The notes below the pieces were generated by a model. That model saw only the letters and a program-made list of their open reading frames with translations, was not told where the DNA came from and did no database searches. The position numbers and the translations under genes were made by a program. A DNA stretch of 4,719 nt. It comes from a virus. Taxonomy: Duplodnaviria; Heunggongvirae; Uroviricota; Caudoviricetes. The DNA lies in the IMG/VR virus record IMGVR_UViG_2778261151_000015; one strand, written 5' to 3'. Shown in pieces: positions 75 through 4,719 of the stretch; position 1 is the first letter of the stretch; each line of letters begins with the position of its first letter.

Positions 75-1361
75 TTACCCCGCTTTCTTATGGGGCATGC
101 ATGGGACACTTTCAGATAGTCTTCTGTTAAGAAGTTCTATCTGTTCGTGATTGTTGTCTTTCATCCATGCTCCGTAAACATTGAATACCATTTGTGCGTT
201 TGTGTGGCCCATCTGGCTTGCGATAAAACTAGGATTAGCTCCTGCGGCAAGTGACCAGCATGCATAGGTATGCCTGGATTGATACGATTTTCTGTGTCTC
301 AGACCTGCGCGTTTTAAGATACTTGTCCATGACTCCCTGATGGAGTCAACCTTATAGTGCGGTCCGGAAAACTGCCGCTGTTTTATTACCTGAGGACTAA
401 AAACAAAAGTGCATTTATGCACAGCAGTTCTCCCATATTCCCTCTGCTTTACCTCTACAGAATGTTGCTTTCCAAGCATAGTCATTTCTGCCTGGCTTTT
501 AAGAGCATCAATAGCTGGTTGAACCAGATGAATTGTCCTTCCGGTGCCAGCATCGGTTTTTGGTGGAGTGAATTCGCCAAGTTTTGTATAATTCCTACGG
601 ATGGTTATAGTCCTTGCTTTAAGGTCGATATCTTCCCATGCCAGCGATACCAACTCCCCGTGACGAATACCCGTGTATACAGCGAGAATCCACAGGTTTT
701 TTGTTTGTTGATGACGGCAAGCCTCAATAAAACGAATAAATTCGTCACGGGTGAGTGGATCTGGTTTTACCTTGGACTTTTTTAAGGGGGCCAGACCGTT
801 AAATGGGTTTCCTGAGGTATAACCATTATCTGTTGCAAATTGAAACATTCCAGCTATGGTTGTCATATAGTAGTTTACCGTGACCACTGAGCGCCCTTTT
901 ATGGAAGAAGTCTTTCCATTAGAAAGCTTTTGGTAACCGGTCAACAAATCTCTCCTTACGAAAAGTAAATCCTCTTTTGTTATGGATGAAACCAGTTTTT
1001 TTTCACCTAACATTGGTAACATGTTTTTAATTACTGACTGGTAACGGTTAAGTGCATTCGCACAAATCTCAATTTTCTTAAGGTCCAACCATTTTTCCGA
1101 AAGTGCCTTAACGGTTATCTCTCTTTTTCCCAGACCAAAGTGTTTCAGGTTAGGGGAATTAGGGAACTGCGCGGCGTAGTCGAAACTCCCCATTCTGATT
1201 GCAAAACAAACGGAAGTGCGAAGTTCACCAGCGATCTTCCGGTTTTTGGCTGTGTCAGGAACACCGAGGTTTTCTCTGACACGTTTGCCGTTATAGTGAA
1301 ACCATATGCGTAGTGATCCGCCATGGTTTTCAACGCCTGTCGGGTATGATGCGTTACTCAT
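75..1361 (-). CDS. int: Phage-type tyrosine recombinase (integrase), Rac/IntR-like family
   Basis: 428-aa ORF with ATG at 1361-1359 and SD GGGAGG 5 nt upstream. N-terminal arm-binding-like region (MSNASYPTGVENHGGSLRIWFHYNGKRVRENLG) and C-terminal catalytic region with conserved Arg (YTGIRHGEL), HxxR-type motif (SRHTYACW) and a tyrosine-containing tail (NAQMVFNVYGAW). Resemblance to Rac-type IntR is from memory. Sits directly downstream of an excisionase-like gene. Confidence 0.9.
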   Translation of the reverse strand: MSNASYPTGVENHGGSLRIWFHYNGKRVRENLGVPDTAKNRKIAGELRTSVCFAIRMGSFDYAAQFPNSPNLKHFGLGKREITVKALSEKWLDLKKIEICANALNRYQSVIKNMLPMLGEKKLVSSITKEDLLFVRRDLLTGYQKLSNGKTSSIKGRSVVTVNYYMTTIAGMFQFATDNGYTSGNPFNGLAPLKKSKVKPDPLTRDEFIRFIEACRHQQTKNLWILAVYTGIRHGELVSLAWEDIDLKARTITIRRNYTKLGEFTPPKTDAGTGRTIHLVQPAIDALKSQAEMTMLGKQHSVEVKQREYGRTAVHKCTFVFSPQVIKQRQFSGPHYKVDSIRESWTSILKRAGLRHRKSYQSRHTYACWSLAAGANPSFIASQMGHTNAQMVFNVYGAWMKDNNHEQIELLNRRLSESVPCMPHKKAG

Positions 1362-1394
1362 TAAACCTCCCAGACGTCCAGGAGCATTAACAGG

Positions 1395-1649
1395 TTAACC
1401 GGAACTTGCATTTTTGGCACCTGGTTGTTTCTGGTTTTCGATCCATCGCATAATTTCTTCGATGTTGTACAGGCATTCACTGTAATGCCCTGGATCACCT
1501 TCTACAGCGTAATGACGGTATTCTTTTCCCTGCATCCATGACTTTCTTCTGGCCCGCTCGATGGTGCCAGGCTTTAGCCCTGTTGATGCAATGAGGACTC
1601 TCTCTGTACACCATTTGCTGGGGGTTATCTGATAGATGATTGTCTGCAT
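1395..1649 (-). CDS. xis: Excisionase-like / recombination directionality factor (putative)
   Basis: 84-aa ORF immediately upstream of int (33-bp gap), basic and small, with a helix-turn-helix-like segment (GLKPGTIERARRKSWMQGKEY). SD GAGG 5 nt before the ATG. Call is based on position and size more than on strong sequence identity. Confidence 0.65.
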   Translation of the reverse strand: MQTIIYQITPSKWCTERVLIASTGLKPGTIERARRKSWMQGKEYRHYAVEGDPGHYSECLYNIEEIMRWIENQKQPGAKNASSG

Positions 1650-1667
1650 GCCAACCTCATAAAACTT

Positions 1668-1802
1668 TCATCCACGGCAGTGGCACCAGACCTCAAACAT
1701 TCGTTTCACAATTTCACGACAGTAGAAACCGTCAACATCTCGCGTCAGGTCGTAGTGGTTGCCGTAACGCTGGTGGACCCATAGCTCAAACGCTTTATTC
1801 AT
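1668..1802 (-). CDS. Small hypothetical protein (44 aa), His/Cys-rich
   Basis: Hand-translated from the minus strand: MNKAFELWVHQRYGNHYDLTRDVDGFYCREIVKRMFEVWCHCRG. Below the ORF-track length cutoff. Strong SD (AAGGAAG, 6-nt spacer) before the ATG at 1802-1800, and it exactly fills the gap between the upstream gene stop (1806-1808) and xis. Confidence 0.5.
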   Translation of the reverse strand: MNKAFELWVHQRYGNHYDLTRDVDGFYCREIVKRMFEVWCHCRG

Positions 1803-1805
1803 TTT

Positions 1806-2048
1806 TTACTTCCTTTGCATTGCGCGTAATTTCTTCAGGTGCTTTTCTTGTTCTGTTTCAGCCAGAATCTTGTGATATTCCAGGTGGTCAATATGCTCGA
1901 ACAGGCTACTGAATTCACCGATGCGTACTCGCCCGGTACGTCCGTCCATCCTCCGAAAGAACACTGAGTGCTCAGTACTGCGAGTAATTTCTACTGGGTA
2001 TCCGGCTCTGTCTGTGTATATCTGCCCGCGTTGAATCAAAGCGAACAT
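1806..2048 (-). CDS. Hypothetical phage protein (80 aa from ATG; track ORF extends to a TTG at 2084)
   Basis: Same frame as track ORF 1806..2084, whose first codon is TTG. First ATG is at 2048-2046, 4 nt after the stop of the upstream micro-ORF, with a GGGGA SD-like sequence upstream. Product MFALIQRGQIYTDRAGYPVEITRSTEHSVFFRRMDGRTGRVRIGEF... has no family I can name confidently. Confidence 0.55.
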   Translation of the reverse strand: MFALIQRGQIYTDRAGYPVEITRSTEHSVFFRRMDGRTGRVRIGEFSSLFEHIDHLEYHKILAETEQEKHLKKLRAMQRK

Positions 2049-2052
2049 GTGG

Positions 2053-2175
2053 TTATCCCCATCGACAAATCGAGTACACAACAAACGCTACTGCGAATAC
2101 CATCCCCAGAGTTACGATTGCATCAGGCCAGCTCATTGATTCACCTCCTGCGGCGTCCTGGTATTCGATTTTCAT
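2053..2175 (-). CDS. Small hydrophobic membrane peptide (40 aa from ATG 2175; alternative 27-aa start at ATG 2136)
   Basis: Hand-translated: MKIEYQDAAGGESMSWPDAIVTLGMVFAVAFVVYSICRWG. ATG at 2175-2173 overlaps the TGA of the clamp-like gene (ATGA). The internal ATG at 2136 has a near-consensus SD (AGGAGGT, 6-nt spacer). One predicted TM helix (AIVTLGMVFAVAFVVYSI). Confidence 0.45.
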   Translation of the reverse strand: MKIEYQDAAGGESMSWPDAIVTLGMVFAVAFVVYSICRWG

Positions 2176-2741
2176 TCCGGATGCTCCTGAGCCACGTTGA
2201 AATCGCCATGATCACGACAAGGCATCACAACAAATTCAGGATTGCCATACATTGAGTTGATGATGGAATCAAACTGAATTCTGACCGCTTGCCCGTCACC
2301 GGAGGGACGTAACTGGACGGGAATAAATTTACGCTCACGACCAAACATCTTCTCTGGATAACTCAGGTAACCCGCCTGGAGCACCGGGTGAGTACAGCGG
2401 TCAAACTTTTTCGGAATGATGCGATCCAAATCCGGAAAACAACCGTCCACCAGTTTAATGCCGGTAATGGACAGTCGTCGCTGAAACTGGTCGCGATGAA
2501 CAGCGATCGGCTCTTTACTAAAAATCAGCTCTGTCGTTTCGGCTTTGGCCGGGACGCCCCCTTCGAACTGGACAATGATGTTTTTCTTCGTCCGGATGCC
2601 GTGAGCCATGCGCAGTGCCACGGAACCATTGGTTGCCTCAATATGTTTCGGCGTGATGTGAAGACCGTTCAGGTAATAACGAACGTCGTTTTTAGCAGCG
2701 CACACCAGAGCGGCGCGAATAAGTTTTGACTGGATGATCAT
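2172..2741 (-). CDS. DnaN-like protein: truncated DNA polymerase III beta sliding-clamp homologue (189 aa)
   Basis: Motifs match E. coli DnaN domains II-III as I recall them: DVRYYLNGLHI (DnaN DVRYYLNGMLF), KLVDGCFPDLDRIIPKK (DnaN KLVDGRFPDYRRVLPKN), C-terminal EFVVMPCR (DnaN AYVVMPMRL). About half the length of DnaN (366 aa). ATG at 2741-2739 overlaps the stop of the upstream gene; SD GGGAGG 7 nt upstream. Confidence 0.75.
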   Translation of the reverse strand: MIIQSKLIRAALVCAAKNDVRYYLNGLHITPKHIEATNGSVALRMAHGIRTKKNIIVQFEGGVPAKAETTELIFSKEPIAVHRDQFQRRLSITGIKLVDGCFPDLDRIIPKKFDRCTHPVLQAGYLSYPEKMFGRERKFIPVQLRPSGDGQAVRIQFDSIINSMYGNPEFVVMPCRDHGDFNVAQEHPE

Positions 2742-3487
2742 GCTTTATCCTCCCATCCGATCACCTGGAAAAGCCCCATCTTCGGGTGATACCAGCGTGT
2801 GCCGCGTGGTTCAGCCTCTGACATCATTTGGTGGAACGCCGCCATAAATGGCTCAAGCTCGACGATAGCCCTGCGAGACAACAGACCGTCCGGAGTCATG
2901 AATTCGTGGGTGTCTGTAGGAATTTGATATGCGTTCACCAGATTCCGACACTTGGCGTCACTCATTCCACTTTTGGCTACCACCTGGCGGTAACCGACAT
3001 ATCCGGCGCGCATTGTGCCGCGTTTGATGTTCTCCACAGCTTTGGTGACCGTTTCGATCTTCTTTTCAACATGACTCAGGCGCTTTTGCTGGCGAACGGC
3101 ATCGGCGGCCATTGCAGCGATCATCTCCATTTCCGTCAGCGGCGCGTGAGTTCGGAAATAGCTGTTAACCAGTTCGCGCTGAACCTGCCAGGCCAGATCG
3201 TCGGTGAAGGATTTCACCAACATCAAATAACCGGATTCGACCAGTACAATTCCTGCTGCTGCAAATTTTGAGAAAGTACCGTCAGGGAGGTGTCGACGAA
3301 TTTCGTCGGAACCTAATTCGAAGTAGTCTTCCCCTTCAATAAGACGAGACTTGTTTTCGCGGAAATTGCGTCCCGCTGTTCCGTCCGGGCGTTGGTGCAC
3401 TTCATCAATCATCGCCAGCGTCACCACGCGCTGACCGCGATATTCGATTACCGGAAACTGTTTGTTGTTGATGGTTACAGTATTCAT
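2738..3487 (-). CDS. ORF6N-domain phage protein (putative antirepressor/regulatory protein), 249 aa from ATG 3487
   Basis: N-terminus MNTVTINNKQFPVIEYRGQRVVTLAMIDEVHQRPDGTAGRNFRENKSRLIEGEDYFEL fits the ORF6N pattern (…IEY.GQ.V.T…NF..NK.RFIEG.HYF.L). Track ORF starts at a GTG (3562) that would overlap the upstream gene by 32 nt; the ATG at 3487 has a GGAG SD and is preferred. C-terminal ~150 aa has no family I recognise. Confidence 0.7.
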   Translation of the reverse strand: MNTVTINNKQFPVIEYRGQRVVTLAMIDEVHQRPDGTAGRNFRENKSRLIEGEDYFELGSDEIRRHLPDGTFSKFAAAGIVLVESGYLMLVKSFTDDLAWQVQRELVNSYFRTHAPLTEMEMIAAMAADAVRQQKRLSHVEKKIETVTKAVENIKRGTMRAGYVGYRQVVAKSGMSDAKCRNLVNAYQIPTDTHEFMTPDGLLSRRAIVELEPFMAAFHQMMSEAEPRGTRWYHPKMGLFQVIGWEDKA

Positions 3488-3502
3488 TTTTATCTCCAGA
3501 CA

Positions 3503-3525
3503 GCCCGGCGTGTAATACCGGGCAT
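3503..3525 (-). other. Intergenic GC-rich stem-loop (GCCCGG / 9-nt loop / CCGGGC) between SPFH gene and ORF6N gene
   Basis: Perfect 6-bp inverted repeat in the 43-bp gap between the stop at 3531 and the preferred start at 3487. No U-tract follows on the mRNA strand, so it is not a canonical intrinsic terminator; possibly a processing or stability element, or a partial attenuator. Confidence 0.35.
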
Positions 3526-3530
3526 ATGTA

Positions 3531-4361
3531 TTACTTAACCTGAATAAATGGTGTGTTGGCACCGCTGGTCATGTACTGCGGCAGTGTGCCGTTCCATTTA
3601 TTGATGGCTTCCAGCTCCATAACACCGGGGTTCTGGCGCAGAGCTTCACCGCGTAAACGAATTGCATCGGCTTCGGCCTGGGCTTTTGTGCGAATCGCAT
3701 CAGCCTGTCCGGCAGCTTCTGCACGCAGCATGTTGGCTTCTGCTTCGCGTTGTTTAACTTCCTGCTCGCGTTGCAGTGTTTTCTGGTTTGCCGTGACTTT
3801 GGCGTTAATGCTGTCGATAACGGTTGGTGGGTACTCTGGCTTACCCACATATGAGAGGCTCATTACCTGAATACCGATGGGTGTCATTTCTTCCTGGATG
3901 TCTTTTAGAGCGGCATCCAGTAATTCAGATTTACCGCCGTCAATAAATTTGTCGGTGGTCATTTTGCTGGCCAGCCGATTGAGTGCGTCGGCGATCTTCT
4001 GGCGCAGGTCTGTATCGGTAATGTCATCCACGCCTTTGCGGTAGGTCTGAAATACCGTGGTAACTTTCGATGGATCAACCTTATAGGCCACGCCGATGTG
4101 ATAACCGATGGTTGTGCCGTCGCTCATCTGGAAGCTGAATGGATCATCGTAGATCTTCATTTGTTTGAAGGTCGGGAAAATGTAAACTTCAGTATTCCAG
4201 CCAGTCCAGTAGCGACCAACACCGACCACCTCACCGACACCTTTGTCGTCGCCCAGTTTGTTGACTTTGATACCCACATTACCTGGTTCAACGCGATCGC
4301 AACCTACAAGTCCGAAGACAGCCAGACTGACCGCGAAAACAAGCGCAATTGTTTTTTTCAT
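3531..4361 (-). CDS. SPFH (band 7 / prohibitin / flotillin-like) domain lipoprotein
   Basis: 276-aa ORF. N-terminal lipoprotein signal with lipobox (MKKTIALVFAVSLAVFGLVG|C). Central SPFH-like region followed by a Glu/Ala-rich coiled-coil (REQEVKQREAEANMLRAEAAGQADAIRTKAQAEADAIRLRGEA) typical of HflK/HflC/flotillin-type proteins. ATG at 4361-4359 overlaps the TGA of the upstream small ORF (ATGA). Confidence 0.8.
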   Translation of the reverse strand: MKKTIALVFAVSLAVFGLVGCDRVEPGNVGIKVNKLGDDKGVGEVVGVGRYWTGWNTEVYIFPTFKQMKIYDDPFSFQMSDGTTIGYHIGVAYKVDPSKVTTVFQTYRKGVDDITDTDLRQKIADALNRLASKMTTDKFIDGGKSELLDAALKDIQEEMTPIGIQVMSLSYVGKPEYPPTVIDSINAKVTANQKTLQREQEVKQREAEANMLRAEAAGQADAIRTKAQAEADAIRLRGEALRQNPGVMELEAINKWNGTLPQYMTSGANTPFIQVK

Positions 4362-4546
4362 TTTTCCCTCCCGGGGAAAGAAAGACCCTTATAAATGGCA
4401 TAAATGCAGGGCGGGGTCAGACACGCCAGAGCAAAGCCAGAAATCACTGCTACCGTATCCTTCATTGATATGAGGGCCGGAACGATTAATCCGTAAATAC
4501 ATGCGATAATTGCCAGTGATATAACTATTCTGAAATAAATGTTCAT
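4358..4546 (-). CDS. Small two-TM membrane protein (62 aa), partner of the SPFH lipoprotein
   Basis: Two hydrophobic helices (FRIVISLAIIACIYGLIVPALIS and VAVISGFALACLTPPCIYAIY) separated by a short polar loop. SD AGGAGG just upstream of the ATG at 4546-4544. Stop overlaps the SPFH start. Confidence 0.6.
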   Translation of the reverse strand: MNIYFRIVISLAIIACIYGLIVPALISMKDTVAVISGFALACLTPPCIYAIYKGLSFPGREK

Positions 4547-4572
4547 GGTCCTCCTGATGTATTCGGCTTGCC

Positions 4573-4595
4573 GGTAATGACTCCAACTTACTGAT
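4573..4595. repeat. IS1 terminal inverted repeat (IRR)
   Basis: GGTAATGACTCCAACTTACTGAT matches the ~23-bp IS1 right inverted repeat with one substitution relative to the K-12 copy as recalled. Confidence 0.8.
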
Positions 4596-4719
4596 AGTGT
4601 TTTATGTTCAGATAATGCCCGATGACCTTGTCATGCAGCTCCACCGATTTTGAGAACGACAGTGACTTCCGTCCCAGCCTTGCCAGATGTTGTCTCAGAT
4701 TCAGATTATGTCGCTCAAT
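4588..4719 (-). CDS. insB: IS1 transposase InsB, C-terminal fragment (partial; 5' end outside window)
   Basis: Minus-strand translation from the window edge gives [43 protein letters not shown], matching the known InsB C-terminus. Stop TAA at 4590-4588, immediately inside the IRR. Confidence 0.8.

Follow-up and report, generated by a model that had tools for sequence, protein, structure and literature searches.

Insertions of IS1 are polar in either orientation, as established by the classical reports on this element. Polymerase modified by lambda N is able to read through IS elements, and the promoter of insA is weak and repressed by InsA. A terminator located within IS1 is mentioned in PMC12095673, where it is attributed to Hubner, Iida and Arber (1987). 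According to the statements of PMC8764528 and PMC9330008 that cite Prentki et al. (1986), the inverted repeat of IS1 supplies a −35 box that faces outward and forms hybrid promoters provided that a well-spaced −10 box is given. When IS1 was located upstream of three different genes, transcription went up at only one of them, which was the site with a good −10 box (PMC8764528).

The locus studied here was compared with these systems by analysing a stretch of 4,719 nucleotides, which will be called the window, and its relatives in E. coli genomes. Our preferred reading, with a rough probability of 0.8, is that an intact IS1 of the IS1F type lies in the middle of the early-left operon, that the prophage is decaying and has been hit by several IS elements, of which this is one, and that the insertion would be polar on the genes located downstream. 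The features on which this reading is based are given in Table 1.

Table 1. Position of the features at and around the IS1 insertion in the window
Feature	Position	Strand	Remarks
IS1 right-hand part (3' part of insB and right inverted repeat)	4573-4719	-	147 of 768 bp; the rest lies beyond the window edge
IS1 right inverted repeat (IRR), GGTAATGACTCCAACTTACTGAT on the + strand	4573-4595	-	20/23 match to the left repeat
TTGGAG, outward −35-like hexamer in the right inverted repeat	4581-4586	-	3/6 to TTGACA
Target-site duplication, one copy	4564-4572	+: CGGCTTGCC; gene strand: GGCAAGCCG	9 bp
Remnant of the original 60-bp intergenic spacer	4547-4572	-	26 bp, identical to IS1-free relatives
AATACA, candidate −10 hexamer in the target DNA	4558-4563	-	3/6 to TATAAT; last base A, not T
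Shine-Dalgarno AGGAGG of the 62-aa gene, strong	4550-4555	-	Read from the sequence
62-aa predicted membrane protein, first intact prophage gene downstream of IS1	4358-4546	-	phrog_1130 'membrane protein', E = 1.9e-23
SPFH/Band_7 lipoprotein gene	3531-4361	-	Pfam Band_7 (precomputed); phrog_200 'lipoprotein', E = 3e-114
Remaining early-left genes downstream of IS1 (ORF6N, 189-aa clamp-like, small ORFs, excisionase, integrase)	75-3562	-	ORF list, relatives, PHROG

The right end of IS1 occupies positions 4573–4719 of the window, where it is present as the reverse complement on the + strand. These bases were identical (147/147) to annotated IS1, found in thousands of E. coli copies, and 4960 of the 5426 complete E. 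coli genomes hold a copy spanning at least 80% of the 147-bp piece. The 26 bases at 4547–4572 part the start of the 62-aa ORF (4546, minus strand) from IS1, and the end of the element is placed 27 bp away from the first base of the start codon. An earlier reading made from the letters of the window (hereafter, the sequence-only reading) had placed the IS1 end at 4573, the start of the 62-aa gene at 4546 and the element 27 bp upstream of it. All these positions were correct, the first one by the 147/147 match and by the divergence of the relatives exactly at 4572/4573, and the other two by the coordinates of the ORF list. When the whole window was compared by megablast with the complete E. coli genomes, 18 of them spanned at least 80% of it, and the listed alignments of this extent ended at 4572, with the exception of one ending at 4550. 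The IS1-free relatives VL46 (99.7% identity) and VR50 (93%) matched the window up to 4572 and differed from 4573 on, reading TTATTTAATTGCGTCATGG and onwards beyond 4572, where the window enters IS1.

The complete element was readable at locus L009 (assembly GCA_900448845.1), which was obtained by a look-up of the 62-aa protein and which equals the window at 4719 of 4719 bases. In L009, IS1 extends over 768 bp (5207–5974) and is flanked by a perfect 9-bp duplication, GGCAAGCCG, at 5198–5206 and 5975–5983. The second of these copies corresponds to 4564–4572 of the window, and the first one is directly outside the left inverted repeat of IS1. In silico excision of IS1 together with one duplicate gave, base for base, the empty site of seven loci (L004, L006, L008 and L010–L013), in which the 9-bp target is present as a single copy. 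The sequence-only reading had guessed that 4564–4572 was the target duplication, and had proposed as checks that the other IS1 end be located and that the region be compared with IS1-free prophages. The guess proved right, since the second copy (CGGCTTGCC on the + strand) was found in L009 at the other end of the element, and the comparison rebuilt exactly the sequence existing before the insertion. IS1 landed 34 bp past the stop of a 130-aa gene and 26 bp ahead of the ATG of the 62-aa gene, and no coding sequence was destroyed. The event is a simple transposition of IS1 into the 60-bp spacer between the 130-aa and the 62-aa genes, and not a rearrangement, because the duplications match and the empty site is restored.

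The sequence at the junction between the prophage and IS1 is GTATTCGGCTTGCCGGTAATGACTCC. This junction was absent from the 5426 complete E. coli genomes, none of which spans at least 80% of positions 4300–4719. In addition, an exact search with 45 nt of the junction in species-representative genomes and a search with 29 nt of it in metagenome contigs gave no match. The insertion was found in a single assembly, GCA_900448845.1, whose carrying contig is listed under two samples, and it appears to be confined to the lineage of this assembly.

The element is an intact IS1 of the IS1F type. IS1 proper is defined by a length near 768 bp, imperfect terminal repeats of some 23 bp that start GGT(A/G)ATG, a target duplication of 9 bp (rarely 8), insA overlapped by the insB frame with −1 frameshifting between them, and high identity to a named isoform; the element is 768 bp long, its repeats match at 20/23, and the 9-bp duplication, the gene layout and the identity are all present. 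Both insA and insB are open frames with the same orientation as the prophage genes. The A6C frameshift motif TTAAAAAACTC, at which frameshifting is predicted, is present, the stop codon of insB is at 4588–4590 and, according to the precomputed Pfam hits, the 167-aa product carries PF03400 (DDE_Tnp_IS1). Over the 768 bp, identity was 763/768 (99.3%) to IS1F of K-12 and 700/768 (91.1%) to IS1A, and of the 147 bases inside the window 145 were identical to IS1F and 138 to IS1A. At least 12 E. coli genomes are listed with a full-length copy that is 100% identical to this one. The differences from the K-12 copy, which had led the sequence-only reading to propose an IS1 variant, reflect the known gap of about 9% between the IS1A and IS1F types. 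Hence, the proposal was right in that the copy differs from IS1A by about 9%, but the element belongs to the common IS1F type, which K-12 itself carries, and an unusual new variant was rejected on the basis of the 763/768 identity to K-12 IS1F. The isoform present here is common and probably active, and its open frames together with a second 768/768 copy located 4 kb off suggest recent activity.

In the IS1-free relatives, the region of the window corresponds to the left arm of a prophage of the lambdoid type that is integrated beside mlrA. A cI-like S24-peptidase repressor is followed there, on one strand, by a 164–167-aa HTH protein and by products of 68, 119, 71 and 72 aa, the last of them ParE-like. 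Next come the 130-aa gene and, after the 60-bp gap, the gene of the 62-aa membrane protein, followed by the SPFH lipoprotein and the ORF6N anti-repressor-like protein, and the series ends with the 189-aa clamp-like protein, further small genes, xis and int. A cro-like gene is divergent beside the cI-like repressor, 12–15 co-directional genes are found down to xis/int, and the early-left genes end at the attachment site next to mlrA. This co-directional series, from the repressor region to xis/int at the attachment site, is the arrangement of an early-left (pL-type) operon, and all the early-left genes listed matched phage protein families (PHROG). A single good promoter-like site was found, some 2.5 kb upstream and beside the gene of the cI-type repressor. 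In locus L008, which is free of IS1, a terminator-like hairpin is located after cI and then TTGACA-17-TAATAT is found ahead of the HTH gene, and the scan of the same locus gave neither a promoter-like nor a terminator-like site in the 60-bp gap in front of the 62-aa gene.

Judging by this gene order, the 62-aa gene is a mid-operon gene of the early-left operon and not the head of a separate membrane module. The sequence-only reading had taken it as the first gene of an operon; this does not hold, since in the relatives the co-directional 130-aa gene ends 60 bp upstream and no promoter-like or terminator-like site was found in the gap. In contrast, its statement that the insertion had probably severed the genes from what lies upstream was borne out, the 62-aa and SPFH genes being separated by IS1 from the upstream genes and the promoter seen in the IS1-free relatives. 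The 62-aa protein is annotated as hypothetical in the relatives. Its stop codon overlaps the start codon of the SPFH gene as ATGA (4358–4361), and a separate Shine-Dalgarno sequence, GGGAGGG (within 4362–4379), precedes the SPFH gene, whose product starts with a lipoprotein signal that ends LVGC. The 62-aa and SPFH genes are not an invariable pair, because E. coli O103:H2 12009 (L016 2180–3148) conserves the 130-aa and 62-aa genes with the 60-bp spacer between them and has another gene, not SPFH, next.

Some further observations concern the annotation of this region. The mechanical ORF of ORF6N (2738–3562) has a GTG start at 3562, which falls inside the end of the SPFH gene, and codes for 274 aa; in the RefSeq relatives the product has 249 aa and starts further in, and the true start is uncertain. 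The 189-aa protein (2172–2741) is named 'beta clamp domain-containing' in RefSeq. Its best PHROG, phrog_3007, is a 'RusA-like Holliday junction resolvase', in conflict with that name, and hits to processivity factors were weak. A 65-aa ORF (4389–4586), which starts in the inverted repeat and runs out of frame across the 62-aa gene, was regarded as mechanical. Finally, Rfam identified the C4 antisense RNA and isrK at positions 2–188 of L008, beside the Ant/ASH-type genes of this IS1-free relative, and an immunity element of the P1/P7 kind appears to be carried there by a lambdoid prophage.

With IS1 in the spacer, transcripts coming from the early promoter, which is controlled by the repressor, would now have to cross the element from the left to the right inverted repeat. 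Translation of insB would take place only after a rare frameshift, leaving about 440 nt mostly free of ribosomes, and the untranslated insB together with the reported IS1 terminator would give rise to Rho-dependent polarity. From this, we infer that the insertion is polar on the downstream genes. After induction, the 62-aa, SPFH, ORF6N, xis and int genes would be under-expressed and excision could be hindered. Being upstream of xis/int in the same operon, the insertion may help to lock the prophage in place, and locking of prophages by IS elements is a common theme in IS-rich genomes of the Shigella type. In the repressed lysogen, the insertion would probably be near neutral because the operon is already off. 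An antitermination system of the N or put type, if present in the prophage, could suppress the polarity after induction. No PHROG match to an N-like antiterminator was obtained among the early-left proteins, a search in which a divergent system would be missed. In the Rfam scan, the window and L009 gave no RNA family, and L008 gave only C4 and isrK, away from the junction. The intact SPFH gene and the intact genes down to int also fit a retained function.

The insertion is not isolated. In the source genome, 10 kb of the same prophage contain at least four IS elements, namely two IS1 and two members of the IS3 family. The second IS1 (L022 4293–5060), which equals the copy of the window at 768/768 bases and is flanked by a 9-bp duplication of its own, GGGAAATTG, is located about 4 kb beyond the right edge of the window, on the cro side and nested in an IS3-family (IS600-like) element, and a further IS3-family copy is found at L022 1–236. 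In addition, the 130-aa gene located upstream of IS1 (L009 4770–4937) has A8 where the relatives have A7, a frameshift that leaves a 55-aa product; the extra A could be either a real mutation or a sequencing error in the homopolymer. Related prophages of other IS-rich strains have been hit independently at other positions. In L007 (about 4733–6000) and L005, an IS600 is found where the 62-aa gene has its start codon, and in L007 the CAT duplication that it produced rebuilds the ATG and removes the Shine-Dalgarno sequence. An IS600 is also present inside the 130-aa gene in L013 and in strain VL7S7 (L003), the latter having an IS911 inside the SPFH gene as well, and split SPFH genes occur in related prophages. 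Neutral accumulation of IS elements in a prophage under decay accounts for this pattern better than a selected activation does. IS-driven decay of the prophage, with a polar effect on the downstream genes, is the likeliest reading.

Other readings were weighed against the one of a polar insertion, two of them supposing some transcription from the IS1 side, which would be expected to be weak whether it came from a hybrid promoter or by read-through from the insA promoter. Repressor-independent transcription that starts at the insA promoter, or at a chance site inside the element, and leaves IS1 through the right inverted repeat would give a weak expression of the downstream genes, and we consider its occurrence unlikely. 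The orientation is suitable, insA and insB being co-directional with the prophage genes. The scan identified a sequence resembling the insA promoter, CTGCCA-16-TATGAT, at L009 5214–5241, and an outward site with 9/12 matches, GTTACA-17-CATAAT, at L009 5814–5842, and it gave no terminator-like hairpin on that strand from the insB stop to the 62-aa ATG. However, promoter-like sites are at the level of chance, as nine were found versus 7.9 ± 2.5 expected from shuffled sequence. Moreover, the largely untranslated insB and the reported IS1 terminator should stop most of the transcripts, and the insA promoter itself is a weak one under repression by InsA.

A hybrid promoter made up of TTGGAG from IS1 and AATACA from the target was also considered. 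It would drive the 62-aa and SPFH genes constitutively and independently of the repressor, perhaps as far as xis/int, and if true it would mean the domestication of the membrane genes, but we regard it as improbable. On the one hand, the spacer between the hexamers (4586–4581 and 4563–4558) has 17 bp, within the 16–18 bp of IS1 hybrid promoters, the IS1 repeat provides, according to PMC8764528 and PMC9330008, a −35 box facing outward, and all the downstream genes are intact in this copy. On the other hand, each hexamer has only 3/6 matches, AATACA ends without the conserved T and a TG extension is absent. The promoter scan does not report TTGGAG-17-AATACA, and pairs of hexamers with 3/6 matches each are found about 100 times per kb per strand in the window, so that the motif is not above chance. 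In addition, the predicted transcription start, 7 nt after the −10 hexamer at about 4551, would be inside AGGAGG (4550–4555) and would reduce the leader of the 62-aa gene to about 5 nt devoid of Shine-Dalgarno sequence, the SPFH gene keeping its own ribosome-binding site. It must also be considered that, of three IS1 insertions upstream of genes, only the one next to a good −10 box led to more transcription (PMC8764528), and that SPFH genes are often broken in related prophages, which argues against a strong selection for the module. With regard to the TTGGAG/AATACA candidate put forward by the sequence-only reading, the hexamers and their 17-bp spacing are indeed present, but with 3/6 matches each the pair is at chance level and unreported by the scan, and a functional hybrid promoter is unlikely on these sequence grounds.

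Three insertions, namely IS1 at −27, IS600 at the start codon and IS600 in the 130-aa gene, fall near the beginning of the 62-aa gene. Because these hits recur within about 250 bp, a small chance was left to the possibility that the spacer is a recurrent, selected IS target by which the membrane/SPFH/xis-int block is uncoupled from the repressor, with IS1 giving repressor-independent expression and leading to domestication; we take this to be very improbable. Finally, an assembly artefact or an IS1-mediated deletion or inversion with unrelated DNA on the far side of IS1 has a negligible probability, since, although only one IS1 end is visible in the window alone and such events are common in IS1-rich genomes (e.g., the split prophage of strain VL7S7), in L009 the far IS1 end is followed by the second 9-bp copy and then by the exact continuation of the empty site of the relatives, and a rearrangement would leave no matching duplications.

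The insertion of an IS1F-type element in the early-left operon, which we keep as the preferred reading, is an ordinary and already known kind of feature, a common IS1 in an Escherichia/Shigella prophage, with many IS elements per genome, and it has little importance beyond annotation. The work establishes exactly where and in which orientation one IS1 copy was inserted, to which isoform it belongs and which target sequence was duplicated, all of this observed directly together with the element itself and its position in the operon, and it corrects the idea that the operon starts at the 62-aa gene. As the 62-aa and SPFH genes are cut off here from the early promoter of the prophage, the IS1-free VL46 or CFSAN029787 are a better reference for them.

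As an element, the copy shares with IS1F of K-12 (NC_000913.3 4518472–4519239) the 768-bp length, the repeats starting GGTAATG, the insA/insB layout and the A6C motif. It differs from it in that insB7 of K-12 is annotated as a pseudogene with in-frame stops, whereas both frames are open here. Compared with the canonical IS1 (IS1A/IS1R), the length, the organisation, the structure of the inverted repeats and the 9-bp target duplication are the same, and the difference is in the sequence (700/768 overall and 138/147 inside the window). The IS1 hybrid promoters of Prentki et al. (1986) and of afaA in E. coli ST131 (PMC8764528), as they are presented in the latter source, resemble the present junction in having a −35-like box in the repeat, 17 bp to a −10-like hexamer of the target and a gene in the right orientation. 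However, a good −10 box and measured expression were reported there, and what is found here is sequence alone, with a poor −10 hexamer overlapping the translation signals.

By analogy, the insertion would act in the manner of the classical polar IS insertions known from operons. As in the classical IS1 and IS2 polar mutants of gal and lac, the IS element is between co-transcribed genes, and lower distal expression through Rho-dependent termination would be expected. Unlike them, the operon is here an early one of a prophage, repressed in the lysogen, and the polarity, which we infer, would have an effect only after induction. With respect to the IS-driven decay of prophages in Shigella and enteroinvasive E. 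coli, the likeness consists in the presence of IS1, IS600-like and IS911 elements at different sites in each strain within the same prophage family, and there is no difference in kind, except that the present insertion spares all the coding sequences.
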